From contig CAYRQJ010000001.1 in NCBI GenBank assembly GCA_964426555.1, positions 117,633-181,632 on the forward strand: a DNA stretch of 64,000 nucleotides, in the 5' to 3' direction. Of this stretch, positions 4,723 through 62,773 are shown piece by piece. The stretch comes from an uncultured Candidatus Saccharibacteria bacterium (GTDB lineage Bacteria > Patescibacteriota > Minisyncoccia > Phycocordibacterales > UBA9973). Under the pieces are notes generated by a model that was not told where the DNA came from, ran no database searches, and saw only the letters and a list, made by a program, of their open reading frames with translations. A program made the position numbers and the translations under genes. The first letter of the stretch is position 1; the number at the start of each line of letters is the position of its first letter.

Positions 4723-5100
4723 ATGAACAAAATAATTTCAAAAATTGTAGTAGTAGCAGTGATTTTCTTCACAGCTCCTGCAGTAAAATCACAAGTTAAT
4801 GATGCTGGACCAGAAGCATTTAAAAAAATTACAAAAATTGGCCCCGAAGGGTGTCCCGCATTATACTGGTGGAATCCACAGGGTTATTGCGGGTTAGGAT
4901 GTTGGCAATTAGCCAGTGATTCATCTACAGAAAAGATGATGATGCAACAAATTGTTCCAGAGAAATCTCGTGAAGTAAAAATTAATGGTGATACGACTAT
5001 TAAAATTATCACACTAACAGTGTCTGGCTTCTCTAACGAATTCTTTTTCGATGGATACTGGAGAAAGTATCCACAGTATTGTGTTGAACTCAACCAATAA
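4723..5100 (+). CDS. Small secreted/membrane-anchored hypothetical protein
   Basis: The internal Met gives the signal peptide MNKIISKIVVVAVIFFTAPAVKS. There is no recognisable domain. Confidence 0.45.
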   Translation: MNKIISKIVVVAVIFFTAPAVKSQVNDAGPEAFKKITKIGPEGCPALYWWNPQGYCGLGCWQLASDSSTEKMMMQQIVPEKSREVKINGDTTIKIITLTVSGFSNEFFFDGYWRKYPQYCVELNQ

Positions 5101-5117
5101 AAAAACCACAACGCAAA

Positions 5118-5150
5118 GGGCGGGGATGAATACATCCCCGCCCATTTTTT
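5118..5150. terminator. Bidirectional rho-independent terminator
   Basis: gggcggggatg-aata-catccccgccc hairpin with an A-tract upstream and a T-tract downstream. It lies between convergent genes. Confidence 0.7.
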
Positions 5151-5958
5151 ATACCCCACAAACTTTTTCAATATAGGGTTTTATATATTTAAAATTATCT
5201 TTAATAATTTTATTGGGTTCTACTAGTATTTTTTTATAATCTACTTCTTCGATTACTTGTTGCTCTACTTTAAGGTCTTTATCTATAGCTGAAGAAATTT
5301 CAACAATTGAATAAAATAACCAATGATTATTTCCTTTGTAATCTTCGGCTGCAGGAATTTGCATTAAATCTGCAAATAATCTTATACTTTTTCTTAATGT
5401 ATGAAGTTCGTCAACATTAATTTTTTCTTTATTAAAAAGTTTTTCAATCTTATTTAAGATTTTTAAAACATGATTTTTAAAATCTAAAACATCTACTGAT
5501 TCAATAGGTAATTCAATTTTATCGATCGCTAAAAAAATCTCATTTCTTTCAATTTCTAATGGGGTAGTTAAATACTTATCATTAAATTTCCCCAGTGTTG
5601 ATATAAATGTATGCAACTCATCCGGACATTTATGTTTTGGATATAAAAATTGGTAAATAGCTCTCAATACTAAACCATACCGCCTAATCATTCTAAGATA
5701 CTTTCGACTTTCTTTATTTGGTTCTTTTTGTAAATGATTTAAAAACTCATTTTTTTTAAAAACAAATGCAAAAGTCTTATTTGCTTCTTCAAATATATGT
5801 TTACGATATTCATCGTCAATAAAAATACTATTAAATTCTTCTACTCGAGGATTTAAATTTGGGTTCTCTCTAATATCCATAAAGTGATTAACCAAAACTG
5901 GTTCTAGATTTGAAGATTCATGGGTATTTGGAATATTAGAATTAAATTTTTCCTTCAT
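5149..5958 (-). CDS. Hypothetical protein, possibly CHAD-like (weak)
   Basis: 269-aa ORF with basic helical segments (RKYLRMIRRYGLVLRAI, ELHTLRKSIRLFADLM) that recall CHAD-domain patterns. No firm motif was found. Confidence 0.4.
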   Translation of the reverse strand: MKEKFNSNIPNTHESSNLEPVLVNHFMDIRENPNLNPRVEEFNSIFIDDEYRKHIFEEANKTFAFVFKKNEFLNHLQKEPNKESRKYLRMIRRYGLVLRAIYQFLYPKHKCPDELHTFISTLGKFNDKYLTTPLEIERNEIFLAIDKIELPIESVDVLDFKNHVLKILNKIEKLFNKEKINVDELHTLRKSIRLFADLMQIPAAEDYKGNNHWLFYSIVEISSAIDKDLKVEQQVIEEVDYKKILVEPNKIIKDNFKYIKPYIEKVCGV

Positions 5959-6403
5959 TATGGTTATTTAAAAATTTATATGCGTCTTCTAAAATCAGTT
6001 TTCGTTCCGGGAATGTTAAAAGTTCTATGGCTTGTTTGTAAGTAACCCATTTCAATTCTGGAATTTCATTTTTAAAATCATCAGGTATTGTGTTTTCTAT
6101 AGAATTAGTACGGCCTAAAAAATACACTACTGTTTTATTGTATGGTACCCCCTTTTTTTCCAAGTAAAATTTCTCAGTAAATGAAATGTTATTAATTAAA
6201 TTAATGTCAGTAATTCCTGTTTCTTCTTTTAATTCTCGAATTGCTGCTATTTCTTCTGTTTCACCCGGGTCTGCATGACCTTTTGGGAAACCCCAATGGC
6301 CTTTGTTGCTATATACTAAACAAATAAATATCTCACTATTTTGATCTTTAAAGAATGGAATAACCCCATATGATTTGTCTTCTTTTATTGCATTTATATC
6401 CAT
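5942..6403 (-). CDS. NUDIX hydrolase
   Basis: Nudix box GHADPGETEEIAAIRELKEETGI (G-x5-E-x7-REUxEExGU). Confidence 0.85.
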   Translation of the reverse strand: MDINAIKEDKSYGVIPFFKDQNSEIFICLVYSNKGHWGFPKGHADPGETEEIAAIRELKEETGITDINLINNISFTEKFYLEKKGVPYNKTVVYFLGRTNSIENTIPDDFKNEIPELKWVTYKQAIELLTFPERKLILEDAYKFLNNHNEGKI

Positions 6404-7740: not shown

Positions 7741-7850
7741 ACTTCAACCTCACCCTCACCCTAACCCTCTCCAATAAATTAGAGATGGAATAATCACACA
7801 ACCACACCCCCCTTCTCTATATTTATGGAGCAGGGTCGGGGATGAGGTGT
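7741..7850. repeat. GC-rich imperfect palindrome of the cacctcaccct...ggagagggt family
   Basis: cacctcaccctcaccctaaccctctcc ... ggagcagggtcggggatgaggtg forms a long imperfect inverted repeat in an AT-rich intergenic region. Confidence 0.5.
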
Positions 7851-7953
7851 AACGGAAAAAATCACATCTAACGGGATATCCACATGCTGTGCAAATGTAT
7901 GTATTTGCTATATACAAAATGGTATAATTAATGTAAGAAATTAAAAACTGTAC

Positions 7954-10589: not shown

Positions 10590-11477
10590 TTACCATTTTT
10601 GACAATAAGTAGCAGAAGCTGTATTTACATCTACAGTTGTTGTGGTTTTTAGATTAAATTTATTTATTGTTGTTCCTCGTAATTCAAAAATCTTATAGCT
10701 TGTATTTTTAGTTAAGTCTACTGTTATATTTTTTGTTGTTCCAGAACCAAGATCTGTCCAAGTATTTACGTTTAAATTTTCTTTTAATTCCCACAAAGTA
10801 CTATCGGTTGCACTACTGGTGTATGTTAATGTTGCTAAACATTCAGCAGTATCTTTTGTGGTAGTTGTCAGGGTTAAAGCTATAGTTGGGTACGAGAATG
10901 AAGAACATTTTCCAAGATCACCCGAATTTTTTACTGGATTAATAAATCTACATACTGATTCACCAGTGCTAGGATTATGTTTTACTAATACAGTCCCAGA
11001 AGAACAAGGTACATTGCCAGAAGTAGTACAAGTATTACCACTAATTAAATTTGTAGTAGTTCCGTTTGGAAAATATAGTTTTTCAGCACCTGTGGTATAG
11101 CTTTGAGCTTTTGCAGGGTCAGCATCTACGGATACTTGAGCCACACGCAATGCTCCGGCAAAAATATTTCTTTTATCTACAGTAACATCACTAACAAAGT
11201 TGGCATTTTGTCTTACTGTTAAACGGTCTAATAATAAATTAGACTTTATCGCCAAAGATCCAACAGGGCACTGCGAAGTGTCTACTTTATTTGTACCATC
11301 ACCAAAACAAAGTGACCCGTAATGATACTGTGTAACTGGGCTCAAGTTAATAGGAGGGTACGACGACGTATCTGCAGGCAGTGTTGTTGGTTCAGTGAAT
11401 GCAGATATAGTAAATGCAGAACCAATTAACAAACCAAAAAGTGCAGCAATATAAAAATTCTTCTTATTTATGTTCAT
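10590..11477 (-). CDS. Secreted hypothetical protein, mature N-terminus FTEP...
   Basis: Signal peptide ending ISA|FTEPTTLP. The body is Thr-rich with several Cys. Confidence 0.5.
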   Translation of the reverse strand: MNINKKNFYIAALFGLLIGSAFTISAFTEPTTLPADTSSYPPINLSPVTQYHYGSLCFGDGTNKVDTSQCPVGSLAIKSNLLLDRLTVRQNANFVSDVTVDKRNIFAGALRVAQVSVDADPAKAQSYTTGAEKLYFPNGTTTNLISGNTCTTSGNVPCSSGTVLVKHNPSTGESVCRFINPVKNSGDLGKCSSFSYPTIALTLTTTTKDTAECLATLTYTSSATDSTLWELKENLNVNTWTDLGSGTTKNITVDLTKNTSYKIFELRGTTINKFNLKTTTTVDVNTASATYCQKW

Positions 11478-20710: not shown

Positions 20711-20740
20711 AAACGGAGGTCTTGCCTCCGTTTTTTTTAT
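20711..20740. terminator. Bidirectional rho-independent terminator
   Basis: aaacggaggtcttgcctccgttt plus T-run, between convergent genes. Confidence 0.6.
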
Positions 20741-21123
20741 TTGTTTAATTTTTCTAGAACTTGTTCAAAGTCTTTTTTGTCTATCTCCATTGGGTTCCAG
20801 CCTTCTAGATGATCAGACATTACACGGGGAATCAAATGAATATGGAAATGGGGAACATCTTTACCCACGACAGACAGCTGGACATAGTCGGCACCAATTC
20901 TTTCCTTTATTTTATTAATTAAAGATTTAGATACAATAAACACATGCGACAATAAATCATCCGGAGTATCTTGTAACCACTGAAAATGTGATTTTGGAAC
21001 TATTAAAGTATGCCCCAGTGTAACTGGGTGAATGTCTAAAAAGGCAATACATTGTTCGTCTTCATAGACTTTGTAACTAGGAATTTCTCCAGCTACTATT
21101 TTACAAAAAATACAGTTATCCAT
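20737..21123 (-). CDS. HIT-family nucleotide hydrolase
   Basis: Histidine triad HFHIHLIP. Confidence 0.85.
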   Translation of the reverse strand: MDNCIFCKIVAGEIPSYKVYEDEQCIAFLDIHPVTLGHTLIVPKSHFQWLQDTPDDLLSHVFIVSKSLINKIKERIGADYVQLSVVGKDVPHFHIHLIPRVMSDHLEGWNPMEIDKKDFEQVLEKLNK

Positions 21124-21238
21124 CCCGTTAGAAGTAGGAAATCAAAGATTTCCGTCCTTTATTAACTATTAATTTAAAATTTGATTTATTCATTTCTTTA
21201 TTATATGTATTCCAATTAACAACAAAACTTCTAACGGG
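21124..21238. mobile_element. MITE-like element copy 1 (TIR CCCGTTAGAAG / CTTCTAACGGG, flanking ATCCAT direct repeats)
   Basis: 11-bp perfect terminal inverted repeats. A 6-bp direct repeat ATCCAT sits at 21118-21123 and 21239-21244. The element abuts the HIT-gene start codon. It contains the internal hairpin GGAAATC-aaa-GATTTCC. Confidence 0.55.
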
Positions 21239-21278
21239 ATCCATGAGTACATTATAACATATGCTATAATAGCCAAAT

Positions 21279-23546: not shown

Positions 23547-24863
23547 ATGTACAAATGGATAAGAATTATTTTAATAATCTTACCCATAACATACGGAATT
23601 TATTTTTGTTATATTAAAAAAGAAATTGAAATAATATTACCCCAAAACAGTGTAACTGTGATGGGGTATGTTAGTAATTACAAAGAAGAGAGAATTAGCA
23701 ACAACCATTATACTGTAAACGTAACAAAGCTAAATAACGAGCCGGTAACTGATAATTCAAAAATAATTATTACAACTAGTCCAGCAACTAATTTAAACTA
23801 TGGTGAAAATATAATAATAACTGGTGTAATAGAAAAACCCAAAAATTTTATTACAAATACTGGCATGGAGTTTGATTACCAAAATTATTTACGAATGAAA
23901 AATGTTGTTGGAATTATGCGTGAACCCGAAATAATAAATCATGGCGGGTTTAGTGGAAATTATTTATTAAAATTTTTATACAAAATTAGAAATAAATTTG
24001 CAATAAATTTAGAAAAATATTTAAATAAAAACGACAGCACATTATCTCGTGGAGTAATACTGGGGGAGAAGACTGGTATTACAAATAGCCTACGCGACAA
24101 TTTAGCAAATACATCTACCGCGCATATTATTGCACTGTCAGGCTACAACATTACTATTGTTAGTGAATTGGTTACTAAAATAACAGCGGGGTTAGGGCTG
24201 GTAATTAGCGGGGCATTGTCAGTATTTAGTATAATTATATTTATATTATTAGCTGGCGGGGGTAGTAGTGCATTGCGTGCGGGGATAATGGGAATAATTT
24301 TAGTTTACGCACGGTCTCGTGGTAAAAATTATAATGCAATATTTGCATTATTATTAGCGTCATCTATTTTAATATTGTTACAACCATTAATACTGCGCTA
24401 CGACATGGGTTTTCATCTTTCAGTATTGGCAACATTTGGTTTAATAGTCTTTCAGCGACCAATTGCAGTATTTTTAGTAAAGAAAAGATTTGGAAAATTT
24501 TTGGCAGAAATATTAGCCAGTACAATTTCTGCCAGTATTATGACTATGCCTTATATTGCATACAATATGGGCATAATTTCCATATTGGGAATTCCTGCAA
24601 ATATTATTGTGGTGCCACTACTGCCAATACTGATGTTTACTTCTTTTTTTACAGGATTATTTGGTGGAATATCTTACATACTAACTATACCTTTTGCATA
24701 TAGTACGCATATAGTTAGTAGTGTAATTTTAAAAACCATAAATACATTGGGCGATCTGCCATACAGTGCAGTGTATAAACAAAATATACCACTACTATTT
24801 ATAGTAGTGGTATATTTATTCTTGTTTTACTATGCTTTTAAATTACTTAAAAAATCATCGTAG
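23547..24863 (+). CDS. comEC: ComEC/Rec2 N-terminal and competence (membrane channel) portion
   Basis: N-terminal TM, an OB-like region, then a polytopic membrane domain (8+ TM) typical of the ComEC competence domain. There is no MBL domain in this ORF. Confidence 0.65.
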   Translation: MYKWIRIILIILPITYGIYFCYIKKEIEIILPQNSVTVMGYVSNYKEERISNNHYTVNVTKLNNEPVTDNSKIIITTSPATNLNYGENIIITGVIEKPKNFITNTGMEFDYQNYLRMKNVVGIMREPEIINHGGFSGNYLLKFLYKIRNKFAINLEKYLNKNDSTLSRGVILGEKTGITNSLRDNLANTSTAHIIALSGYNITIVSELVTKITAGLGLVISGALSVFSIIIFILLAGGGSSALRAGIMGIILVYARSRGKNYNAIFALLLASSILILLQPLILRYDMGFHLSVLATFGLIVFQRPIAVFLVKKRFGKFLAEILASTISASIMTMPYIAYNMGIISILGIPANIIVVPLLPILMFTSFFTGLFGGISYILTIPFAYSTHIVSSVILKTINTLGDLPYSAVYKQNIPLLFIVVVYLFLFYYAFKLLKKSS

Positions 24864-25429
24864 CGTCCACTGATTAATTCAAAATTAGTATTTTTAATAT
24901 AATCTTCTATATATTGTTTTTTGCCACTGGGCAGATAGTCGGCAACATAAGAATGTTCCCACATATCGATAGCATATACAGGAAAAGTATTCATAAGCTG
25001 GCCAATGTGTTGTTCGTCTACCCAAGATAATACAAGGTGGTCAAACGTTGTATCGTACGACAATACTGCCCAGCCTATACCCCTGGTCATTGCGGTTTCT
25101 TTTAGCCTAGCCATAAAATTATCCATACTACCAAAGTCAGCTACAATTTGATTTTCTAAATTTGAAGATGTGGGAATGTTTGAAGGAGCTCCAGTTAAAC
25201 TATAAAAATAAAGTTCGTGATTACGCATACCACAAAATTCAAAAGAAAATCTGCGTTGTAATTCAGTGCGAATATATGTTTCTTCCACTGGTAAGGAGTT
25301 TAGTTTTTCTTGAATTAAATTTGCGTGTTTTACATAACCAGCATACAGCTTTAAATGCTCTTCAATGTTTTTGGCAGAGATGCCAACAAGTTCTGGAATT
25401 TCAAAAGTTTTTGTATTATATGTTTCCAT
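24830..25429 (-). CDS. sodA: Fe/Mn superoxide dismutase
   Basis: C-terminal DMWEHSYV signature and the N-terminal helical domain. Confidence 0.9.
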   Translation of the reverse strand: METYNTKTFEIPELVGISAKNIEEHLKLYAGYVKHANLIQEKLNSLPVEETYIRTELQRRFSFEFCGMRNHELYFYSLTGAPSNIPTSSNLENQIVADFGSMDNFMARLKETAMTRGIGWAVLSYDTTFDHLVLSWVDEQHIGQLMNTFPVYAIDMWEHSYVADYLPSGKKQYIEDYIKNTNFELISGRYDDFLSNLKA

Positions 25430-30443: not shown

Positions 30444-31190
30444 ATGGATGAAGAAGAAAACATACAATTAGACGAACAAGCTCAAGCAGAATCAATGAGA
30501 GATGCTATTCATGAAAGAATTGCTTCTCTTGATGCACCAGTTCGTAATTTACTGCTTAGTGATGATTATGTATTAAAGCTAAGAGACATGGTGACTAAAT
30601 ATAGCTTAGACGCAACAAACACTCAAAATCTTGAAGAGATTACTACAAATTATTTACTTGGGGTGATTCGTCCAGAAGAATTAGAACAAACATATAGAGA
30701 AGGTTTATCTAGTTTAACGAAAGATAATATAAATTCTATCTATACAGAAATAAAAAACAATATTTTAAATTCTGTATGGCAAACAATAATAGATGCTTGG
30801 GCTGAAGATGACGAAAACGAACAAATTTATAATGAACTTCTAGAAATGGACGAGATTCCACTACCACCTAATCAACAAAAAGATGGGTCAAAGACATTGG
30901 GGGACAAAGTAAACAAAGAAATAATTAGAAATACAGAATTAGAATTACAGAAAAAACAAGAACAAGTTGAAATAACCCCAGAAATTAAACCTTCAGGGAT
31001 TATAACCAACGAAGAATTAGTAAAAAAGATTAGCGAAGAAAAAAGTGTAGAAAAATCAGCTTGGGATAAAAAAGCTGACGACGTAGATGCAAATAACAAT
31101 GCAACAGTAACTAGTAGAAACAATGTGGACACCAGCTTACCAAAAATATCTCTAAAAAGTTCGGATCCATACAAAGAAACCATAGAATAA
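30444..31190 (+). CDS. Acidic hypothetical protein
   Basis: 248 aa, Glu/Asp-rich, no TM. Confidence 0.45.
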   Translation: MDEEENIQLDEQAQAESMRDAIHERIASLDAPVRNLLLSDDYVLKLRDMVTKYSLDATNTQNLEEITTNYLLGVIRPEELEQTYREGLSSLTKDNINSIYTEIKNNILNSVWQTIIDAWAEDDENEQIYNELLEMDEIPLPPNQQKDGSKTLGDKVNKEIIRNTELELQKKQEQVEITPEIKPSGIITNEELVKKISEEKSVEKSAWDKKADDVDANNNATVTSRNNVDTSLPKISLKSSDPYKETIE

Positions 31191-31214
31191 TCCCGCAATG
31201 CGGGGTTATTTTTA
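31190..31214. terminator. Rho-independent terminator
   Basis: cccgcaatgcgggg plus T-run. Confidence 0.55.
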
Positions 31215-31281
31215 TACAACATTTTATATAATACTAGTTAAAATGTTATTAATAAAATTTTATATGCTATAATTATTTTAT

Positions 31282-31710
31282 ATGCAATTCCAAATGCCAA
31301 GATTTTTGGACATTGAAGACAAAGTCATTGGGCCTTTGACTTTTAAACAATTCATATTTTTGGGTGGAGGTTTTGGTTTGGCATATGTGTCATACAAATA
31401 CTTGGGTTGGACATGGGGTTTTCCTTTGATTGGACTATTTTTATTCCTGGGAATAAGTTTGTCTTTTTGGAAACCAAACAGTCGTCCAGCAATTGTAATG
31501 TTTCAAGCTTTTTTAAAGCATTACACAAAAAACCATATGTATGTTTGGAAACGCCCTACAAAAGCTGAAAGAATTAAAAAAGAAGAAAAGAAAGACGAGG
31601 GTACAAATATACAAAACAAAGACATAAATAAAAATAAAATTGAAGCATTAGCATGGAGTCTAGATGTAATGGATAGAGTTGGATCGGGAATTAAAAAGGA
31701 AGAAAATTAA
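31282..31710 (+). CDS. Small two-TM protein, VirB3/PrgI-like (by position and topology)
   Basis: Two adjacent TM helices, and the gene sits directly upstream of VirB4. Confidence 0.4.
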   Translation: MQFQMPRFLDIEDKVIGPLTFKQFIFLGGGFGLAYVSYKYLGWTWGFPLIGLFLFLGISLSFWKPNSRPAIVMFQAFLKHYTKNHMYVWKRPTKAERIKKEEKKDEGTNIQNKDINKNKIEALAWSLDVMDRVGSGIKKEEN

Positions 31711-31711
31711 C

Positions 31712-32368
31712 ATGGCAATTAACGCACCTAAAAGTCAAGAATTTATACCTATAGAAAAAATCCGCGATGGTGTGGTTATACTTAAAGATGGGTCATACCG
31801 CAGTGTACTGTTGTGTACTGCTATTAATTTTACATTGCGGTCTGAAGACGAACAAAAAGCTATTCTTTCTCAATTTCAGTCATTTTTAAACTCACTGGAT
31901 TTCTCTGTACAAGTAGTAATTCAGTCTCGTAAATTTGATATAAGACCTTATTTAATAACACTGGAAGACAGATTAGATAAAATAGAAGAACCATTACTAA
32001 AATTCCAAACAAAAGAATACATAGAATTTATTCGCGAACTTACTAGCTCGGTAAATATAATGTCAAAACATTTTTATGTTGTTGTGCCATATTCCGAAGC
32101 AGTACTGGAAACTGCCGGGGCTTTTCAAAAATTATTTGGTGGAGTAGGTGGTTTAAAGAAAAAAGAAACATTTGAAGAAGCCGACTGGAACGAAAAAAGA
32201 AACCAGCTTGAACAAAGACTGGGAATTGTGGTATCTGGTTTGGGAAGATGTGGTGTTCGTAGTGAAGCATTAGATACCCAAGGTTTGATCGAATTGTATT
32301 ACAAGACTTTTAACCCTGGCGACGCAGCACAACATGTGCCAAAGCAAGCGATTGATGAATCCCGTTAG
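31712..32368 (+). CDS. virB4: VirB4-like ATPase, N-terminal segment (the gene is split by an inserted element)
   Basis: IPIEKIRDGVVILKDGSYRSVL... matches the VirB4/TrbE N-terminal pattern. It ends at a TAG inside the element's inverted repeat. The start was set at the ATG immediately after the upstream stop. Confidence 0.55.
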   Translation: MAINAPKSQEFIPIEKIRDGVVILKDGSYRSVLLCTAINFTLRSEDEQKAILSQFQSFLNSLDFSVQVVIQSRKFDIRPYLITLEDRLDKIEEPLLKFQTKEYIEFIRELTSSVNIMSKHFYVVVPYSEAVLETAGAFQKLFGGVGGLKKKETFEEADWNEKRNQLEQRLGIVVSGLGRCGVRSEALDTQGLIELYYKTFNPGDAAQHVPKQAIDESR

Positions 32369-32480
32369 AAGCCACGATCACAATTATGGTATTATTATAA
32401 TGATATGAGATATATGAAAGAGTTTAGTAAGTTTAATTTTATGCAAAATTGCGATTGTATCGTGATCTGCTTCTAACGGG
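32361..32480. mobile_element. MITE-like element copy 2, inserted inside virB4
   Basis: TIR CCCGTTAGAAGC (32361-32372) and GCTTCTAACGGG (32469-32480). Flanks are atgaat / atgggt. The upstream ORF stops in the TAG of the left TIR, and the downstream ORF starts at the ATG immediately after the right TIR. Confidence 0.55.
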
Positions 32481-34298
32481 ATGGGTATATTTTCAGGATT
32501 ATTTGGTGGTAATAAAAGGGAAGATTTAAACGATCTTGGATCTCTTTCTGTTCGCCCGGAAGATATTTACACTTCTGCTCAACTTGAACTACAAGACATT
32601 ATTGCTCCATCTGCATTACAAATAATGCCAACAGCGCTGAATTTGGGGGATATGATAGTGCGTTCATTTTATGTTGTGGGTTACCCCAGTATTCTTACAG
32701 ACAATTGGTTAACTCCTATTATTAATCTGGACCGAGTTTTTGATATTGCTATAAACATAAACCCAATTGATACTGGTAAAATTTTAATCCAATTCCAAAG
32801 AAAAGTTGCCGAAGTCCAAAGCCAAATCTCTGAGCGAGAAAGTAAAGGAATGGTTCGTGACCCAATGCTAGAAGCAGCGTATAGAGATTTAGAACAATTA
32901 CGTGATGGGCTACAACAAGCCCAAGAGCGAATGTTTGAAGTTGGGTTATACATTAGTATATATGCGCAAAACGAAACCGAATTATTCAAAGCTGAAAATG
33001 AAATAAAGGGTCAATTAGATTCTCAAATGGTTTTTCTAAAACCGGCAACATTCCAGCAAGACACAGCATTCCTGTCTAGTGTGCCAACTGGCGTAGACGA
33101 TTTAAAGGTTGTTCAAAAAATGAATACTGAACCATTAAGTAGTACTTTTCCTTTTGTATCTTTTGATTTAACAGGCAACAAAGGAATATTGTATGGTATT
33201 AACCAACATAATAATTCATTAATTATTTTTGACCGTTTTTCTTTAGAAAACTATAACTCGGTAACTTTTGCAAAATCTGGGTCTGGTAAATCTTTTGCTA
33301 CAAAGTTGGAAATTTTAAGATCTTTAATGTTTGATACCGAAGTAATCGTAATTGACCCAGAAAAAGAATACGAATATTTGTCTGATGCAGTAGGCGGAAG
33401 ATATTTTGATATTTCTCTTTCTTCTGACCACCATATTAATCCTTTTGATTTACCGGTACCAACAAAAGACGAAACAGCAGGGGACGTATTGCGTCAAAAC
33501 ACAATTAATCTTGTGGGGCTATTTCGTGTAATGCTGGGCGGGCTAACTCCTGAAGAAGATGCAATAATCGACCGCGCAATTACTGAAACTTATGCATTAA
33601 AAGACATTACCGTAGATTCAGATTTTACAAATTTAGAACCACCACTATTGTCTGACTTTGCTGTAGTACTGGCTGGTATGGACGGGACACAGTCTATCCA
33701 AACAAAGTTGGAAAAATATACAACCGGATCTTGGTCTGGGTTTTTAAACAAACCAAGTAATGTAGACATCAACCGTAAATTCGTAGTTTTTTCTATTCGA
33801 GATATGGAAGACGAACTAAAGCCAGTGGCAATGTATATTGTTACTCACTTTATTTGGAACGAAGTAAGAAAGAATTTAAGAAAGCGTTTAATGGTGGTAG
33901 ACGAAGCGTGGTGGATGATGAAAAATGAAGACACTGCTAGCTTCTTATATAGTATTGCAAAGCGTGGGCGTAAATATTATCTTGGTTTAGCTACAATTAC
34001 TCAAGACGTAGAAGATTTCTTAAAATCTCCTTATGGTAGACCAATATTGTCTAACTCTTCAATGCAACTATTGTTAAAACAATCGCCAACATCTATAGAT
34101 ATGTTAAAAGAGTCTTTTAATTTAACAGACTCTGAAAAATACACACTACTTGAAGCAAATGTAGGGGAAGGTATTTTCTTTGCTGGATTAAAACATGTAG
34201 CAATTAAAATTATTGCTTCTTATACTGAAGAACAAATTATCACATCTGACCCAGCCCAAGTATTGGCTATCCAAGCAGCAAAAGCTCAAGGTAAATAA
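32481..34298 (+). CDS. virB4: VirB4-like ATPase, C-terminal segment (Walker A/B)
   Basis: Walker A FAKSGSGKSFAT and Walker B MVVDEAWWMM (DEAW), typical of VirB4/TraC. Confidence 0.8.
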   Translation: MGIFSGLFGGNKREDLNDLGSLSVRPEDIYTSAQLELQDIIAPSALQIMPTALNLGDMIVRSFYVVGYPSILTDNWLTPIINLDRVFDIAININPIDTGKILIQFQRKVAEVQSQISERESKGMVRDPMLEAAYRDLEQLRDGLQQAQERMFEVGLYISIYAQNETELFKAENEIKGQLDSQMVFLKPATFQQDTAFLSSVPTGVDDLKVVQKMNTEPLSSTFPFVSFDLTGNKGILYGINQHNNSLIIFDRFSLENYNSVTFAKSGSGKSFATKLEILRSLMFDTEVIVIDPEKEYEYLSDAVGGRYFDISLSSDHHINPFDLPVPTKDETAGDVLRQNTINLVGLFRVMLGGLTPEEDAIIDRAITETYALKDITVDSDFTNLEPPLLSDFAVVLAGMDGTQSIQTKLEKYTTGSWSGFLNKPSNVDINRKFVVFSIRDMEDELKPVAMYIVTHFIWNEVRKNLRKRLMVVDEAWWMMKNEDTASFLYSIAKRGRKYYLGLATITQDVEDFLKSPYGRPILSNSSMQLLLKQSPTSIDMLKESFNLTDSEKYTLLEANVGEGIFFAGLKHVAIKIIASYTEEQIITSDPAQVLAIQAAKAQGK

Positions 34299-34322
34299 AT
34301 AAAGCTGTGATATAATAATTAG

Positions 34323-35267
34323 ATGAAAAGGCTTTTTGTAATGCTTTTTATGTTATCTAGTTTTTTAATTACTAACTCAAATGTATTTGGGCAAACTTCT
34401 AGCGCCGAACCAAATATAGACATTATAGCCAGCCCTAATGACCCAGAACCGGGGGAAGAAATCACAATTAGTCTTAGTAGTTACGAAATAGATTTGGGAT
34501 TAGCTTATATAAAATGGGCTGGAGAAAACAACACAAAAGAAGGTTATGGGGAAACAGAATTTACAGTAAACGCACCTAACAACGACAATGATTCATATAC
34601 TGCCCGAGCTTTTATAAAAACCAGTGATGGACAAAATATAGAAAAATCTATTACTGTATATACAAATACATATGATTTAATTTGGGAAGCCGTTGATACA
34701 AAATATCCTCCATTTTATGCTGGTAAAAAGTTACCAATTAAAGAAAATACGCTAAGAGTATCACTACTACGACCAACAACAAGTAAACAATATTCTTTTA
34801 AGTGGCAAAGAAATGGTAAAAGCATTACTGGTAAAGGTGGGATGCTTAACCCATGTGTAGAATTTGATAATACGGAAATTCAAAACAAAGAAAATGTTTC
34901 TGTAAAAATATCTAATGGTACAAACCAAGCTGAAAGAAATATTGATATACCATTAAACAAACAAAGAGTTTTGTTTTACGAATACATTCCACAATTTGGA
35001 TTAAACACAAATAATGCTTTGAATAAAAATTCAATTGGGTACGACGGCACAGTATCAGTACTGGGGTTGCCTTTAGGGTTAAGCAATAATGCAAAGACTG
35101 AATTTAGTTGGAATTTATCTGGAGATGATGTAAATAGTCAAGAAAATCCTTTTTTACTTTCTTTTGGTAAACCTGAAGGCAAGGGAGTTGTTAAAATAAC
35201 TGTAAGAATAGAAAATTTAAAATCTCTTTATCAAGAATTTAAAGGTGTTTTAAATTTAGAATTTTAA
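34323..35267 (+). CDS. Secreted hypothetical protein of the T4SS-like locus
   Basis: Signal peptide MKRLFVMLFMLSSFLITNSNVFG. Confidence 0.5.
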   Translation: MKRLFVMLFMLSSFLITNSNVFGQTSSAEPNIDIIASPNDPEPGEEITISLSSYEIDLGLAYIKWAGENNTKEGYGETEFTVNAPNNDNDSYTARAFIKTSDGQNIEKSITVYTNTYDLIWEAVDTKYPPFYAGKKLPIKENTLRVSLLRPTTSKQYSFKWQRNGKSITGKGGMLNPCVEFDNTEIQNKENVSVKISNGTNQAERNIDIPLNKQRVLFYEYIPQFGLNTNNALNKNSIGYDGTVSVLGLPLGLSNNAKTEFSWNLSGDDVNSQENPFLLSFGKPEGKGVVKITVRIENLKSLYQEFKGVLNLEF

Positions 35268-35367
35268 TATGAATCCGCCAAAACTTTTCATTTTAAATAA
35301 ACAAAAGTTTAGGAGGATGAATCCGCCAAAAATTTTTATTTGGTATTAATAATAAATTAAACTTTTC

Positions 35368-36450
35368 ATGAAAAAACTAAGAAAAATTAGGCGGATGAAT
35401 TTAAAAAAATTATTTACAATCATTTTTATACTAACTAGTATTGTTTTTTTGGGGAACATTACACATGCTGAAGAATTACCAACCGCCAAAACATACACCG
35501 AGCAAACCGGAATAGACGCATCTGCTGGTAGCTATGAACTAATCAGCCCAATAGGGAACTTAAGTAAAATACCAGATGTTAGTGATAATGGATTCTCTGA
35601 CTTTGTTAATCTACTTATTCGTATAGCTATAGCATTAGCAGGGGCTATAGCTGTAGTAATGCTAATAATAGGCGGTATACAGTATATGGGTACCGATAGT
35701 GTATGGGAGAAGGGGGAAAGTAGAAGTAGAATGACCAGTGCTATTATTGGTTTAGTGTTGTTATTAACATCTTATTTTATATTGTTTAATATTAATCCAG
35801 ATTTGGTAAATATTCGTATAGGGGGTCTGCGGGTTAGTGAAGAAGAGTGGGAAAAAGTAGAATTTGATAAAGGAGTAAGACCCTGGATAGGTTCTACTCC
35901 GGTAGATATAAGCAAAGCTTCAGAAAAAAATATTATTCAAAGCAATATTACTACTTATGATGTATCTTTAAAAAAAGCAGCAGTAGCAACAGGGTTATCT
36001 TGTACAGATTTAAAGGCTTTTGCTTTTGTGGAAACAGGTTTCGACAAAGATGTTGTTAATGGAACAAAAACTAGTAGTAGTGGAGCTGCTGGTCTTATGG
36101 CTTTAATGCCAGCTACGGGGAAAAATTATGGATGTAATACTGCTGCTGAACTAAGTGACCCTGAAAAAAGTGCTCTTTGCGGCGCAAAGTTTTTAAAAGA
36201 ATTAAAAACAAAAGCATGTAATGGTGCTGAAAAAAACGATGTTTGTAATACCACAGACACAAAATATATAAGTGCGGCTTATAACGGTGGCCCTGGGGTT
36301 AATGCTCAATCTAAAGACTGTCCAAATGAAAAAGTTACTCGCTGGCAGTGTCACACAAACCAGGGTGGATTAAAAGAAACAGAGTACTATACTGTTAAAA
36401 TAGCTGCAAATCAAGAACAACTAAAGAAAAAAGGGTGGGGTTGTGACTAA
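35368..36450 (+). CDS. VirB2/TrbC-like two-TM pilin module fused to an SLT-domain lytic transglycosylase (VirB1-like)
   Basis: Signal peptide, then FVNLLIRIAIALAGAIAVVMLIIGGIQYMG...RMTSAIIGLVLLLTSYFIL (two helices, VirB2-like pattern). C-terminal SLT motifs ETGF, AAGLMALMPATG and AYNGG. Confidence 0.7.
   Translation: MKKLRKIRRMNLKKLFTIIFILTSIVFLGNITHAEELPTAKTYTEQTGIDASAGSYELISPIGNLSKIPDVSDNGFSDFVNLLIRIAIALAGAIAVVMLIIGGIQYMGTDSVWEKGESRSRMTSAIIGLVLLLTSYFILFNINPDLVNIRIGGLRVSEEEWEKVEFDKGVRPWIGSTPVDISKASEKNIIQSNITTYDVSLKKAAVATGLSCTDLKAFAFVETGFDKDVVNGTKTSSSGAAGLMALMPATGKNYGCNTAAELSDPEKSALCGAKFLKELKTKACNGAEKNDVCNTTDTKYISAAYNGGPGVNAQSKDCPNEKVTRWQCHTNQGGLKETEYYTVKIAANQEQLKKKGWGCD
35500..35827. repeat. 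327-bp repeat, identical by eye (copy A), encoding the pilin-like module
   Basis: Same sequence as 38571-38898, as far as I can check by eye. Confidence 0.85.
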
Positions 36451-36520
36451 TATTTCTTTGTTTGATTAGTTTTATAAAAAATAAATAGTTTTTATAAAAG
36501 ATAAATGTTAAAATGTTTAT

Positions 36521-37771
36521 ATGCACAAGGGGCAAATGCTTCGAATATCTTTGTTTATCCTTATCTTAGGGATGGGAGCTTTTTTGATAATTAGAAACAT
36601 TACGCTAAAAAAACAACTAAAAAATGGAGAAATTGCGGAAATAAAACCCCGGGATTTTTTGCCGTTTGGAGACAAAGCAAAAGATTTTTTTAATAATGCA
36701 ATAGACAAAGTAACCGGTAACGAAGAAAACGACAATCAGCAAAATCAAGAAAATAAGCTTAGATTAAACAAGGTTTCTGCCGATGTTGCTGGTAGCGCAG
36801 TAGTAATAATAGACGACGAAATTGCAGGGCCAGTTGGAACAGATAAAAATGGTAATAACATATACGACAAAATTACTGCTGTGCAATATGTATTAAAGGA
36901 AAACGGATTTGTTTATAGCTATATCCCAAAATACAAAAAAAGTTATTTAATTTCAGAAACAAAAATTCCACACATTCAAAATGCTAAAATTTCAGATGAT
37001 GGAAATATTGTTTTATTTCAATATTTAGATTCAGATTTAAGTACTGAAAAATCTGTATTGGGTAAACTGGGGGACAGTGCTGTAAAAATTCTTCCGGACA
37101 ATATAATATCTTACGATATGAATCAAAGTGGTGATTTTGTTTATGTAAAAAAATCAAAAACAGGGTCAATTATTTCTTTAATTAATAATTTTGGGAATGA
37201 AGTAAATTTATATGTATCAACAGTCACAGAATGGAATGTAAAATTTATTAATAATAATGAATTATTACTAACTACAAAAGCATCAGAATATTTTAATGGG
37301 GTTTCTTATGTTTATAATATAAGATCAAAATCAATGACTCGTTTATGGGGAGGATTTTCTGGACTAACTACAAATATTTCCAGTGGTGGTAATTATATAT
37401 TACGAGCAGTTACAGAGCAGTCTGGACCAAAGCTTGCACTGTATGACAATAAAACTAAATCAGTTTTTGATTTAAACAAGCTGGGCATGGTTGAAAAGTG
37501 TGCTTTTAGTAAAGACGAAACAATTTTAGTATGTGCACTACCAAAAGAATTTCAGAATATGGCATATCCAGATAGTTGGTATTTAGGAGAAATCTCAACT
37601 AAAGATAATTTTATAAAATATACTACATTAAACAAAAACGAAACTATTCTTCCTGGTTTTAATGATATTACAGAAGATTTTGATGTAATAAATCTAAACA
37701 TTAGTAACACTGGAGACATTATGTCTTTTATCAACAAAAAAGATTCGTCTCTTTGGGTATATGAAGAATAA
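36521..37771 (+). CDS. Membrane-anchored hypothetical protein (N-terminal TM, large extracytoplasmic domain)
   Basis: N-terminal TM LRISLFILILGMGAFLII, no motif found. Confidence 0.45.
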   Translation: MHKGQMLRISLFILILGMGAFLIIRNITLKKQLKNGEIAEIKPRDFLPFGDKAKDFFNNAIDKVTGNEENDNQQNQENKLRLNKVSADVAGSAVVIIDDEIAGPVGTDKNGNNIYDKITAVQYVLKENGFVYSYIPKYKKSYLISETKIPHIQNAKISDDGNIVLFQYLDSDLSTEKSVLGKLGDSAVKILPDNIISYDMNQSGDFVYVKKSKTGSIISLINNFGNEVNLYVSTVTEWNVKFINNNELLLTTKASEYFNGVSYVYNIRSKSMTRLWGGFSGLTTNISSGGNYILRAVTEQSGPKLALYDNKTKSVFDLNKLGMVEKCAFSKDETILVCALPKEFQNMAYPDSWYLGEISTKDNFIKYTTLNKNETILPGFNDITEDFDVINLNISNTGDIMSFINKKDSSLWVYEE

Positions 37772-39377
37772 ATTTTTAAAAATTTTATTTGTTTTTGGAA
37801 TTTTATTTTATAGTATTAATTCTTTTGCTGCATGGAGTAATATTGGTAATAGTGTTTCCTTTATGGAAACCAGTAGTAATGGAAATGATACTGCTATTGT
37901 TTATTCTGGGTGTGGAGTTAGTGATGGTGGTGCACAAAACTGGGCAAATGCATTATATGAATCAAAATTAAAAACAAAAGGCATAAAATATCTCTATGCT
38001 GTGGCCTTACCTAGTGGAGCAAATAATTGTGCTGTATCTGTTGCAAATATCTCTAATTCAAAAATAGTTACTGATTTAGAATCAAAAAATACATCTGGGC
38101 AAATTAAAAATATTATAGTAATAATGCATTCATCTGGAGCATTCACAGCACAAGATTTTTTAAGACAAATCAATAATAAGTCAGCATTTAATAAAATAGT
38201 TACTGCTTTTAATATAGATGGGGCAAATATTAGTGGGGTAGCCTTAAAGAAAACATATTTAGTAATTGGTAAATCTGGAACAATCAAATCTTTAAATCAT
38301 GATATCGGTATTATAAACGACGAAACTATTGATTTAATTTTACCAACTGGATGTAGTACAGCTTTTTGTACACACATGAGACTGGTAAATAGTACTGGGG
38401 GGAATAGCACAGTAGATGCAGATTATAAAAATACGACAGCTAGTAATGTAACTAGTTCATATTTAGATAAACTACCTAATGTATCAGTTAGCTCTAGTGG
38501 CGGTACAACCCTTGTGGTTGGTGGTGGAGTAGCAAATACATCAACAACTCTAACGGCTAAAACTTTTAATGAGCAAACCGGAATAGACGCATCTGCTGGT
38601 AGCTATGAACTAATCAGCCCAATAGGGAACTTAAGTAAAATACCAGATGTTAGTGATAATGGATTCTCTGACTTTGTTAATCTACTTATTCGTATAGCTA
38701 TAGCATTAGCAGGGGCTATAGCTGTAGTAATGCTAATAATAGGCGGTATACAGTATATGGGTACCGATAGTGTATGGGAGAAGGGGGAAAGTAGAAGTAG
38801 AATGACCAGTGCTATTATTGGTTTAGTGTTGTTATTAACATCTTATTTTATATTGTTTAATATTAATCCAGATTTGGTAAATATTCGTATAGGGGGCTTA
38901 ACTGTAAATGAAGAAGCTTGGGATATCGAATTTGGTGATGGAGGATCACAGTATTTAACTAATGGCAGCTTAACTCCTGGATCTACAACAAAAAATTGTC
39001 CAGAAGGTTTTGTGAATACTGGTGTTTTTGTGGCTTGTAAAAGTATTGCTAAAAATATTGAAAACATGGTCGCAGCTGCAAAAAAAGATGGCATAATTTT
39101 AGGTGGGGGAGGATTTAGAACAAAAGAACAACAAATTGAATTAAGAAAGAAAAATTGCGGAGGCGATGTCGATACAAAAAAATCTACACAATGTAATCCA
39201 CCAACTGCTAAACCCGGAACTTCAAGACACGAAAGCGGAAAAGCTTTTGATATCACATGCGATGGTAAAAGTATGGCAGGTAGTAAATGTTTTACCTGGT
39301 TACAAAACAATGCAGCAAAGTATGGATTAAAAAACTACAAAGCCGAACCATGGCACTGGTCAACAGATGGACATTAA
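37761..39377 (+). CDS. Secreted multi-domain protein: N-terminal domain, VirB2-like two-TM module, C-terminal M15 (VanY/L-Ala-D-Glu peptidase-like) zinc peptidase
   Basis: Signal peptide. The internal 108 aa are identical to the 35368 gene. The C-terminus has SRHESGKAFD (SxHxxGxAxD) and EPWHW (ExxH) zinc ligands of peptidase M15. Confidence 0.65.
   Translation: MKNKFLKILFVFGILFYSINSFAAWSNIGNSVSFMETSSNGNDTAIVYSGCGVSDGGAQNWANALYESKLKTKGIKYLYAVALPSGANNCAVSVANISNSKIVTDLESKNTSGQIKNIIVIMHSSGAFTAQDFLRQINNKSAFNKIVTAFNIDGANISGVALKKTYLVIGKSGTIKSLNHDIGIINDETIDLILPTGCSTAFCTHMRLVNSTGGNSTVDADYKNTTASNVTSSYLDKLPNVSVSSSGGTTLVVGGGVANTSTTLTAKTFNEQTGIDASAGSYELISPIGNLSKIPDVSDNGFSDFVNLLIRIAIALAGAIAVVMLIIGGIQYMGTDSVWEKGESRSRMTSAIIGLVLLLTSYFILFNINPDLVNIRIGGLTVNEEAWDIEFGDGGSQYLTNGSLTPGSTTKNCPEGFVNTGVFVACKSIAKNIENMVAAAKKDGIILGGGGFRTKEQQIELRKKNCGGDVDTKKSTQCNPPTAKPGTSRHESGKAFDITCDGKSMAGSKCFTWLQNNAAKYGLKNYKAEPWHWSTDGH
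38571..38898. repeat. 327-bp repeat, identical by eye (copy B)
   Basis: Same sequence as 35500-35827. Confidence 0.85.
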
Positions 39378-44153: not shown

Positions 44154-44165
44154 AATAATATGGAT

Positions 44166-44245
44166 CCCGTTAGAAATTACATGGTTAATATAAATTATAA
44201 GTTTAATAAAATACGGAAATCTTAAGATTTCCTATTTCTAACGGG
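44166..44245. mobile_element. MITE-like element copy 3
   Basis: TIR CCCGTTAGAAAT / ATTTCTAACGGG. Perfect 6-bp direct repeat ATGGAT at 44160-44165 and 44246-44251. It shares the internal hairpin GGAAATC-ttaa-GATTTCC with copy 1. Confidence 0.6.
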
Positions 44246-44497
44246 ATGGATCATATAAATAGTTACTTTTCTAAAATTACAGGTACTATTTTAAAAAAAG
44301 GGCAAGAAAAAGAAGCTATTATTTTGTGCATAAAAGAAATAACTGGTATTGAATTAAAAAAACATGATTTTGTTTTAAAAAACCATGTTTTAAAAATAAA
44401 ACTTTTTGGGATTAAGAGATTTAAAATTATCTCCCTTAAGGAAAAAATTATCTCCCTTTTAAAAGAAAGAAATATTATAATTACTGAGCTTCAGTAG
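44246..44497 (+). CDS. Small hypothetical protein downstream of dnaN (possibly DUF721/DciA-like)
   Basis: 83 aa, basic. The start codon lies in the ATGGAT flank of the element. Assignment is by position only. Confidence 0.35.
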   Translation: MDHINSYFSKITGTILKKGQEKEAIILCIKEITGIELKKHDFVLKNHVLKIKLFGIKRFKIISLKEKIISLLKERNIIITELQ

Positions 44498-53084: not shown

Positions 53085-53165
53085 AGAGGAGCAAAAACCT
53101 ATAACACCTCAAAAACACACCTCACCCCTGACCCCTCTCCATTAAAATAGGAGAGGGGAATGTGG
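53085..53165. repeat. GC-rich hairpin repeat (family member)
   Basis: cacctcacccctgacccctctcc-attaaaata-ggagagggg. Confidence 0.6.
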
Positions 53166-53170
53166 TTTAT

Positions 53171-53530
53171 TTACAAACTAAGTTCTTTTTTGATTTTTAA
53201 TATTACACTTGGTAAATTTTTAGCAATTTCGCTATTCCAAAATCTAAGAACTTTAATATCTTTTGAGTTTAAGTATTCTTGTCGTCCAAGATCATAATTT
53301 TTTGTTTCTTTATTATGCACACCACCATCTAGTTCTATACATAACTTCATTTCTGGACAATAAAAATCAAGGATAAATTTATCCAAGGGGTGTTGTCTTC
53401 TAAATTTAAAGCCTAGTTTGTTATTACGTAAAAATTTCCAAAGCATTTTTTCTTCAATAGTTTCTTCCTTTCTTAAATATCTAGATTTTTTAATTAGATC
53501 AACTTTATTCATGTATTTAAATTTTACCAC
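53171..53530 (-). CDS. DUF559 (Vsr-like endonuclease fold) protein, second copy
   Basis: MLWKFLRNNKLGFKFRRQHPLDKFILDFYCPEMKLCIELDGGVH. Confidence 0.75.
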   Translation of the reverse strand: MVKFKYMNKVDLIKKSRYLRKEETIEEKMLWKFLRNNKLGFKFRRQHPLDKFILDFYCPEMKLCIELDGGVHNKETKNYDLGRQEYLNSKDIKVLRFWNSEIAKNLPSVILKIKKELSL

Positions 53531-53590
53531 ATTCCTTTCTCCGCAAAAGTGGGGAGAAAGGTAAGGGATGAGGTGTTTTTGGGATATAAA
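53531..53590. repeat. GC-rich hairpin repeat (family member)
   Basis: cctttctcc-gcaaaagtg-gggagaaagg ... gggatgaggtg. Confidence 0.55.
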
Positions 53591-54932: not shown

Positions 54933-54947
54933 TTGTATAAACTTGAC

Positions 54948-55014
54948 CCCGTTAGAGCCAAGCCGCCCCAAGGTGGCTGTAGCACTCGCGTTGCGAGGGC
55001 GGGCCTCTAACGGG
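54948..55014. mobile_element. MITE-like element copy 4 (GC-rich interior), inserted at a promoter -35 box
   Basis: TIR CCCGTTAGAG / CTCTAACGGG. Flanks are cttgac / gttgac. The right flank is the TTGACA of the downstream promoter. Confidence 0.5.
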
Positions 55015-55015
55015 G

Positions 55016-55045
55016 TTGACAAAAGCCTATAAAAGGTGATATAAT
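55016..55045 (+). promoter_or_regulatory. Sigma70-like promoter TTGACA-18-TATAAT for the 55052 gene
   Basis: TTGACA at 55016-55021, TATAAT at 55040-55045, ATG at 55052. Confidence 0.55.
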
Positions 55046-62700: not shown

Positions 62701-62773
62701 CCTCTTGTAGCTCAGTCGGTAGAGCAGCTCCCTTTTAAGGAGATGGTCGTAGGTTCGATTCCTACCGAGAGGA
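62701..62773 (+). tRNA. tRNA-Lys (anticodon UUU)
   Basis: Cloverleaf folded by hand. Acceptor CCUCUUG/CGAGAGG, D-arm GCUC-AGUCGGUA-GAGC, anticodon loop CUUUUAA, T-arm GUAGG-UUCGAUU-CCUAC. No encoded CCA. Confidence 0.85.

Follow-up and report, generated by a model that had tools for sequence, protein, structure and literature searches.

What are the short inverted repeats that lie exactly on start codons in a 64,000-nt stretch (hereafter the window) of an uncultured Candidatus Saccharibacteria genome (assembly GCA_964426555.1, contig CAYRQJ010000001.1, positions 117,633 to 181,632), and how did they come to be there? An initial annotation had described four of them as a non-autonomous family of mobile inverted-repeat elements with target duplications, tied to ATG starts, and both the flanks and the empty sites in related genomes support this description. 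Judged from sequence comparison, the four repeats are real mobile elements, members of a very large and apparently undescribed family in ultra-small bacteria of the candidate phyla radiation (CPR). We consider it likely that they are miniature copies of a family that lands on start codons and descends from a parent encoding a GIY-YIG nuclease, with the nuclease mobilising the small copies in trans.

The 9-mer CCCGTTAGA has nine exact occurrences in the 64 kb, against ~0.5 expected from the length; eight of the nine form four inward-facing pairs, CCCGTTAGA...TCTAACGGG, and the ninth is a lone right end. All four copies lie where they had been placed (21124-21238, 32361-32480, 44166-44245 and 54948-55014) and, counted with their terminal bases, they are full elements of 69–122 bp. 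Copy 1 (21123-21239, minus strand, 117 bp including the terminal T...A) is flanked at 21119-21122 and 21240-21243 by the duplication TCCA, which reads TGGA on the minus strand, and carries a subterminal hairpin, GGAAATC-AAA-GATTTCC (21137-21153), at its gene-proximal end. It adjoins the open reading frame (ORF) of a HIT protein (20737-21123, minus strand), whose start codon (21121-21123) receives its A from the terminal base of the element at 21123. The original leaderless HIT promoter (21244-21264, minus strand), with TATAAT at 21251-21256, then GTACTC at 21245-21250 and then a distal ATG at 21242-21244, is now split from the HIT ORF by the element. Copy 2 (32360-32481, plus strand, 122 bp) has an imperfect duplication, TGAA (32356-32359) and TGGG (32482-32485), and its terminal A at 32481 begins the ATG of a gene for a 605-aa type IV secretion ATPase (32481-34298). 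Copy 3 (44165-44246, plus strand) is a short variant of 82 bp with the duplication TGGA (44161-44164 and 44247-44250) and a gene-proximal hairpin, GGAAATC-TTAA-GATTTCC (44215-44232); its terminal A at 44246 begins the ATG of an 83-aa ORF downstream of dnaN. Copy 4 (54947-55015, plus strand, 69 bp, terminal C...G) belongs to a G+C-rich subfamily that is also present at loci L027, L035 and L064. Its duplication is TTGA (54943-54946 and 55016-55019), the proximal repeat of which rebuilds the −35 box TTGACA (55016-55021) in the leaderless promoter of a 708-aa gene (ATG at 55052), abutting the element, with TATAAT 18 nt further on. The placement noticed in the initial annotation, three copies against ATG codons (HIT, the ATPase and the 83-aa ORF) and the fourth on a −35 TTGACA, is therefore as described. 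So is the module common to copies 1 and 3, GGAAATC-loop-GATTTCC, which occurs nowhere else in the window and has 0 occurrences expected by chance. The lone right end TCTAACGGG (7867-7875, plus strand) has no partner within 260 bp and is probably a truncated copy. In single-strand folding, all four copies are closed by a 14-bp stem made of both ends (−29 to −47 kcal/mol, z −3.5 to −4.6), which extends into the neighbouring start codon and takes in its A and U. A scan of the window at Rfam gathering thresholds matched only a tRNA-Lys and gave no family for the elements.

The boundaries of the elements were defined on 148 non-redundant copies from the window and other genomes (the genome sample). 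Each consists of a 13-bp terminal inverted repeat, Y-CCCGTTAGA-NNN, with an outermost pair of T..A or C..G, around a variable interior of 40–110 bp. Positions −1 to 12 of the ends pair in 127–148 of the 148 copies, and pairing at position 13 is at background (47/148). Because positions 10–12 vary in sequence yet stay complementary (in 127–139/148), and because this stops sharply at position 13, the paired ends are not a product of chance. The inverted repeat of 10–12 bp that had been reported is real, but it extends one base further on each side. The same base matters for the target duplication. Just outside the 9-mer, it is complementary to its partner in 134/148 copies (C..G in 68, T..A in 66) and corresponds to the supposed sixth base of a duplicated hexamer in only 68/148; the two middle flank positions are directly repeated in 94/148 copies versus inverted only in 7, and a permuted control gave 0 perfect matches. 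These figures define the target as R|TNNA|Y with a 4-bp duplication, TNNA. All 106 copies of the metagenome sample have T..A as their terminal pair; the 4-bp duplication is perfect in 67 of them (63%), with one mismatch in 14, and identity over all six flanking bases is found in only 22/106.

A direct comparison of filled and empty sites is provided by the Gmd gene of locus L098, which reads TGGTAAGT-ATGAA-[C CCCG...CGGG G]-TGAA-AAAAGC, i.e. ATGAA-[C..G]-TGAAAAAAGC, while two relatives (86–87% identical) have the empty site TGGTAACC-ATGAAAAAGG. The duplication here is therefore TGAA, 4 bp long, and the terminal C..G is owned by the element; the start codon has been turned from ATG into GTG, with the G coming from the element. 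The 6-bp duplications of the initial annotation are literally present as flanks (ATCCAT/ATCCAT, ATGAAT/ATGGGT, ATGGAT/ATGGAT and CTTGAC/GTTGAC), but the true duplication is 4 bp, and the 6-bp model is ruled out by the 148-copy statistics together with the Gmd comparison: 'ATGGAT' is made up of A (target base), TGGA (duplication) and T (end base of the element). Consistent flanking duplications are also seen in copies elsewhere. Tandem arrays occur at L072:5899-6278, L078:7674-7895 and L260, where two to three elements (E) share one common 4-mer, as in ATGAAT-E-ATGAAT-E-ATGAAT.

Mobility is documented by empty sites at three loci: the HIT start, the ATPase junction and the L098 Gmd gene. Copy 1 also occurs elsewhere in the same strain's sequences and is shared by a 96% relative; the RecJ–HIT spacer is 155 nt long in the window and in that relative. 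In L140 (HIT 74% identical) the site is empty, the spacer is 33 nt, and the same promoter directly joins the single ATGGAG of HIT; L141 likewise has a single ATGGAT at this site. The RecJ–HIT spacer of L141 (3960-4140) holds a different insert of ~150 nt with internal repeats (CCGTGCGCTAC...CCGTGCGATAT...) and no element of the CCCG family. The copy 2 site is empty in relatives whose ATPases are 99, 92 and 91% identical, with the upstream stop codon 1–2 nt before the ATG, and since an ATPase locus as similar as 99% lacks the element, the insertion is recent. The 3' end of the upstream TraC-like ORF (31679-32368) has changed, its stop now being the TAG in the left end of the copy. The ATPase had been labelled the C-terminal part of VirB4. 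It is a stand-alone gene: all of the ~120 homologues listed are 589–678 aa long, nearly all 603–623 aa, each following a separate TraC-like gene, so that the '229-aa + 605-aa' arrangement is ancestral among them and a split of VirB4 by the element is ruled out. Taken as a whole, the elements have the features of MITEs (miniature inverted-repeat transposable elements), namely a length below ~500 bp without a complete mobility ORF, inverted repeats, a duplication that varies from copy to copy, presence/absence polymorphism at three loci, and a longer coding relative.

How widely the family is spread was assessed by scanning three collections for the end pair (exact 9-mers, 44–104 nt apart). It was found in 16 stretches of viral contigs and in at least 120 stretches of species-representative genomes, mostly CPR/Patescibacteria (Saccharibacteria, Paceibacterota and many others), with further matches in metagenome-assembled genomes (MAGs) of Omnitrophota, Planctomycetota, Deltaproteobacteria-type and a few other lineages, at 30–62% G+C overall. 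The metagenome-contig scan was independent of the first, with 20 nt of the hairpin end as query, and gave at least 120 loci; among the matches listed, 119/126 are elements of 74–192 nt (118 of them 74–130 nt), with a peak at 116–120 nt. Copy lengths in the wider samples are 62–130 bp. Literature searches, of incomplete coverage, so that an earlier description is possible, returned no account of this element family, of MITEs in CPR bacteria or of MITEs at start codons, and a search with the 9-mer sequence found unrelated primers only.

The association with gene starts is exact. In the genome sample, 65/148 copies (44%) lie at offset 0 to the ATG or GTG of an ORF no shorter than 60 aa, and offsets from −3 to +9 account for 0–5 copies each; in the metagenome sample, 93/106 (88%) stand at a gene start at offset 0, and most of the others precede ORFs of 27–55 aa or belong to tandem arrays. 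Once the element is conceptually removed, the frame upstream remains open over a median of 7 codons, and over 50 codons or more in only 6/153 cases; because the upstream frame closes so soon, the abutted starts are true gene 5' ends and not internal methionines. When the target is A|TGNA, the gene side regains an ATG (or GTG) through the last base of the element, and the promoter side keeps the original ATG. Most genes of the window are leaderless: their ATG follows an extended −10 box (TGnTAnAAT) at a distance of exactly 6 nt, and no Shine-Dalgarno motif is present (examples at 5942-6403, 10590-11477, 24830-25429, 41538 and 55052); operon-internal genes begin 1–7 nt after the preceding stop. 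No paper linking 'leaderless' with CPR bacteria was found in the literature. Hexamers resembling a −10 box peak at a 6-nt spacer before the distal ATG, matching the arrangement of leaderless genes, and in a smaller class of copies, including copy 4, it is the TTGA of a −35 TTGACA that is duplicated, with a −10 box at the proper distance. Since the window has 310 intergenic RTNNAY sites versus 14 on starts, a loose motif combined with the purging of gene-disrupting insertions does not explain start frequencies of 44–88%. The association could stem from a narrower target (A|TGNA), from insertion directed at initiation regions, from copies being retained preferentially, or from a function.

The copies are also strongly oriented, with the hairpin end toward the gene in 20/24 informative genome copies and in 87 versus 6 metagenome copies. 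On the gene side, 23/62 copies have an ORF of 10 codons or more that begins with ATG and stops at the in-repeat TAA, 4 nt before the ATG of the gene, compared with 7/62 on the far side (p = 5e−4); copies 1 and 2 of the window each have such a small ORF. Inside the element, 24/70 copies have an extended −10 box in the sense orientation, and 4/70 have one in antisense. The initial annotation had suggested that translation could be coupled across the insertion, and the 23/62 versus 7/62 contrast gives this partial statistical support, but by way of the TAA in the right end and not of the in-repeat TAG that had been proposed. The small ORF and the internal −10 box support coupling for a subset of copies, without establishing it. 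Two other routes to expression were rejected. A promoter in the right end starting transcription at the ATG is not acceptable, as inspection reveals no suitable −10 box there, and in-frame read-through or translational bypass is excluded as only 9/51 distal ATGs are in frame with the ATG of the gene (the rarest class, the other two frames having 27 and 15) and none reads through; small ORFs begun at the distal ATG end at variable places. Public gene calls sometimes run upstream through an element, as in P0006 (179 aa), P0018 (161 aa) and P0121 (370 aa), and these extended HIT and Gmd N-termini are spurious.

A candidate parent emerged among the collected loci. Three long forms of 273–278 bp have 12-nt ends identical to those of the small copies and encode a GIY-YIG protein of 83–95 aa: L216:10227-10504, with the clean duplication TTAA; L158:23-295, in which the in-repeat TAA, 4 nt ahead of the host ATG, is the stop codon of the nuclease ORF itself; and L029:3774-4159, from an Omnitrophota MAG, whose ORF is broken by a small copy nested within it. 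This nested copy (L029:3877-3982) has inverted flanks, GTTTAC...GTAAAC. The ORF fills the long form almost end to end, pointing toward the host gene, and matches the Pfam family GIY-YIG (PF01541, E = 1e−17 to 1e−19) over the catalytic domain only; the nearest solved structure is 1ZG2, the UPF0213 protein BH0048. In the alignment, the small copies match the long form over its first ~97 nt (as far as TTACGGAAA, encoding D-L-R-K) and over its last ~26 nt, separated by one gap of ~155 nt, which presents the copies of ~116–120 bp as internal-deletion derivatives of a ~275-bp parent. Predicted folding of the long forms pairs an ORF segment, GGAAACGACTTAAGC, with the 3'-terminal GCTTAAGTCGTTTTC, and this long-range stem shows covariation in L029 and L158. 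In the small copies it has collapsed to the remnant that forms their subterminal hairpin. Their orientation bias, their TAA and the boxes conserved in their interior are thus inherited from the parent.

Other small GIY-YIG genes in CPR MAGs (L022:4350-4700, L254:9020-9330 and L072:2140-2560) lack CCCGTTAGA ends and lie in or beside tRNA genes, one of them inside the T-loop region of a tRNA and one flanked by direct repeats resembling tRNA 5' halves, with an extra hairpin. Insertions encoding GIY-YIG proteins in CPR rRNA genes have been described as neither introns nor homing-like (PMC11270868), and GIY-YIG genes are among those passed from Patescibacteria to other bacteria (PMC12455944).

From these observations we infer that a GIY-YIG nuclease moves the family. 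The nuclease would act in trans on the small copies and may make 4-nt staggered nicks at R^TNNAY, a motif that the terminal Y/R of the element would recreate at both junctions. Because most genes here are leaderless, the target is also the transcript start. An insertion at a gene start would be tolerated since the start codon or the −35 box is regenerated, and signals borne by the element, i.e. the small ORF leading to the in-repeat TAA and the internal extended −10 box, could keep ribosomes reaching the gene. The one-sided orientation may result from selection for these signals or from asymmetric insertion. More tentatively, and with more doubt than belief, we propose that the ~275-bp long form is itself a complete autonomous transposon, whose sole gene is the ~85-aa GIY-YIG nuclease. 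It would represent a new class, among the smallest autonomous transposons, with an enzyme that is neither DDE nor HUH nor a recombinase, homing onto the first codons of genes that are often leaderless, borrowing the promoter and start codon of the host to express itself, and having seeded thousands of miniatures across CPR bacteria, other uncultivated phyla and phages.

Several observations weigh against the GIY-YIG account. Only three coding long forms are at hand, met by chance in loci picked for their small copies, and of these only L216 has a clean duplication; the window has no GIY-YIG gene, though copy 2 is recent. A viral scan for further long forms at a spacing of 240–270 nt gave four chance matches only, and tblastn against plasmids gave none. 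To our knowledge, characterised GIY-YIG enzymes produce 3' overhangs or single nicks and not the 5'-staggered cuts that make duplications, and a protein of 85 aa has no obvious separate DNA-binding domain with which to recognise CCCGTTAGA. Exact 9-mer scans leave diverged members and their partners unsampled. Duplications of 2, 3 and 5 bp also occur, some copies have inverted instead of direct flanks, and one recurrent flank, ACTTGT/RCAAGY, comes without any duplication. Finally, only ~37% of the copies that abut a gene have the TAA-ending small ORF, and about a third have the internal −10 box; neither explains the general tolerance of insertions. The flank AC(T/C)TGT (RCAAGY on the other strand) recurs in unrelated genomes, at L016, L077, L112, L118, L119, L136, L157 and others, and is not accounted for by the 4-bp duplication model.

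The strongest competing explanation makes the repeats ordinary MITEs that depend on a classical DDE transposase acting in trans, such as one of the IS1380/piggyBac lineage, with the GIY-YIG ORF as a passenger or as an independent selfish invader of one subfamily. The 4-bp TNNA duplication and the 13-bp (Y)CCC end do resemble those of piggyBac (TTAA; CCCTAGAAAGATA). Variable duplication lengths are typical of some IS families, and the short G+C-rich and other subfamilies have no trace of the nuclease ORF. IS1380 transposases have served as the prokaryotic outgroup of piggyBac (PMC10813416). We consider this reading unlikely. The autonomous transposase partner with the same ends that the initial annotation anticipated was not found, and the only coding relative encodes the GIY-YIG nuclease. 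End pairs 0.4–7 kb apart in all loci (~1.7 Mb) included no credible transposase-enclosing pair, leaving this explanation without a same-end transposon of 0.5–7 kb; tblastn with the ISEcp1 TnpA against the loci was empty, a test that is insensitive and confined to loci; the ends of ISEcp1 (CCTAGATTCTACGT) are unlike those of the elements; the ORF families recurring near copies are housekeeping genes; and no transposase is among the unknown ORFs of the window. Moreover, the nuclease ORF spans the long form and its sequence forms a conserved stem, unlike a passenger gene. Individual candidates also failed: L221 and L187 are chance pairs of ends, and in a Mu-like phage contig with three copies the MuA/MuB genes are unrelated to the element ends. 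L053, which might have been a transposase composite, is a ~330-bp inverted duplication (2046-2369 and 4832-5155) with a gene for a 686-aa secreted protein between its arms; each arm of this unclassified MAG locus holds one element copy.

A second alternative keeps the nuclease and changes its role. The GIY-YIG enzyme would break TNNA/ATGNA sites in the manner of a free-standing homing endonuclease, the element would be copied in through 4-nt microhomology, and the 'duplication' would be a signature of repair. Free-standing GIY-YIG homing genes between phage genes, such as the seg genes of T4, provide a precedent, and the dominance of a few 4-mers in one subfamily (TGAA 37, TGGA 19, TGTA 6, TGCA 4), the varying duplication lengths and the inverted flanks of some copies would fit. 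The insertion loci, on the other hand, are many and unrelated, with homology of at most 4–6 bp, clean 4-bp direct repeats flank 63% of copies, homing has no need of conserved inverted ends, and the tandem arrays with one duplication (L072, L260) look like repeated insertion, all of which renders this copying mechanism quite improbable.

We give slightly less credit still to the idea that the repeats are regulatory 5' modules or processed leaders of the host, in which the end hairpin is cut in the mRNA, for instance by RNase III, or the stem gates translation, and the copies at starts are kept by selection and not targeted. RNase III cleavage is reported for the Correia elements of Neisseria, and the 14-bp stem that pairs the A and U of the start codon, the extreme offset and orientation biases, the interior boxes conserved across metagenomes, and retention favoured by the loss of the gene upon imprecise deletion can all be read in this way. 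Against this, no Rfam family matched, the interiors of different subfamilies are unrelated, a conserved interior is explained as decayed nuclease ORF, and the recency of copy 2, given its 99%-identical empty locus, speaks against an ancient regulatory role. Conserved palindromic operators or terminators belonging to the genes, suggested by the promoter/5' positions and the strictly conserved 9-mer, are a negligible prospect, as they are already refuted by orthologous loci without elements and are at odds with duplications that differ from copy to copy, nested and tandem copies, unrelated neighbour genes across phyla at 30–62% G+C, and the lack of a T-run.

Among known systems, the closest parallels are other prokaryotic MITEs (Correia/NEMIS, MITEAba12), which are likewise short and non-coding, have inverted repeats and duplications, occur in many copies near genes, and can carry promoters or form mRNA hairpins like the elements described here. 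Correia elements have a 26-bp inverted repeat and a TA duplication. The end sequence of our elements differs from these and other MITEs, and their duplication is the 4-bp TNNA instead of TA or 9 bp, a mismatch in both end sequence and duplication length that excludes identity with Correia/NEMIS. Further differences from known MITEs are the spread across phyla, the placement at offset 0 to start codons with the last base forming part of the codon, and a coding relative that specifies a GIY-YIG nuclease instead of a DDE transposase. A review of MITEs in prokaryotes, published in 2024, has no mention of start codons, leaderless genes, GIY or Patescibacteria (PMC10969869). With piggyBac/IS1380 the elements share a T...A duplication of 4 bp (4–5 bp) and ends of ~13 bp starting with CCC; they differ in having TNNA rather than strict TTAA as target, in the absence of a detected DDE transposase and in the unrelated ends of ISEcp1. 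The piggyBac end, for comparison, is CCCTAGAAAG, set beside CCCGTTAGAAAG here.

Free-standing GIY-YIG homing genes and UPF0213/Slx1-like genes resemble the long form in their GIY-YIG catalytic domain and as selfish genes between host genes. In contrast to them, the long form encodes ~85 aa, comprising the catalytic domain only and no DNA-binding domain, is bounded by inverted repeats and duplications, occupies many unrelated loci and has a large family of non-coding derivatives; with neither a C-terminal DNA-binding domain nor a single cognate locus, it is not a homing gene of this kind. The REP/REPIN-RAYT system also consists of abundant hairpin-forming palindromes with a candidate mobilising gene that is single-copy or rare, but REPINs have no target duplication, depend on HUH Y1 enzymes and form a GTAG-hairpin, whereas the present elements combine duplications with a GIY-YIG gene; the duplications, and the lack of a RAYT-like ORF among the recurrent ORFs, dispose of a REPIN identity. 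Rickettsia palindromic elements, mitochondrial 'byp' elements and the T4 gene 60 bypass are also short palindromic insertions tolerated in or at coding sequence, while the elements here precede the ORF and are neither read through in frame nor bypassed. Integron attC sites have the polarity 5'-RYYYAAC ... GTTRRRY-3'. The elements show the opposite polarity on both strands (5'-GTTAGA...TCTAAC-3') and form no attC array, and were rejected as such sites.

The rest of the window (~34% G+C) contains dnaA, dnaN, a type IV secretion cluster, type IV pilus genes and aminoacyl-tRNA synthetases, and its homologues are in CPR bacteria near Nomurabacteria/Paceibacterota. The secretion cluster (30444-39377) comprises genes for PrgI, a TraC-like protein and the ATPase, together with fusions of pilin to SLT and VanY domains. 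A JGI contig of 97,264 bp (L146) carries an ATPase 99% identical to that of the window, and a HIT homologue just 64% identical is on a JGI contig of equal length; if the two matches share one contig, the cluster has recently moved between lineages. A second mobile-looking element (53113-53583) contains a DUF559 endonuclease-like gene (53171-53530, minus strand; PF04480, E = 6e−34) between inverted repeats of its own, AAAACACACCTCACCCC and GGGATGAGGTGTTTTTG. At ~7745-7850 these repeats recur as a solo copy without the gene (CACCTCACCC...GGGGATGAGGTG), which abuts the lone CCCG-family end at 7867-7875. The ORF at 62712-63875 (minus strand) has a serine-recombinase 'Recombinase' domain but no N-terminal catalytic domain; its region (62701-63875) overlaps or abuts tRNA-Lys (62701-62774), and it is possibly the remnant of an integrated element.

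If the account given here is correct, CPR/Patescibacteria, whose genomes are usually called streamlined and poor in mobile DNA, would harbour a major repeat family that also crosses into Omnitrophota, Planctomycetota, Deltaproteobacteria and phages. Its choice of target would be a rare one, an exact landing on the start codon or the −35 box in which the element gives the first base of the codon. Such elements could turn ATG into GTG, add upstream mini-ORFs, move promoters and mislead gene callers. Leaderless organisation would be shown to be the rule here, and the copies would serve as natural 'insertion mutants' for studying leaderless expression. The very small GIY-YIG (UPF0213-like) proteins would gain a testable function, and a transposon driven by GIY-YIG would constitute a new mechanism of mobility as well as a very compact tool for DNA insertion.

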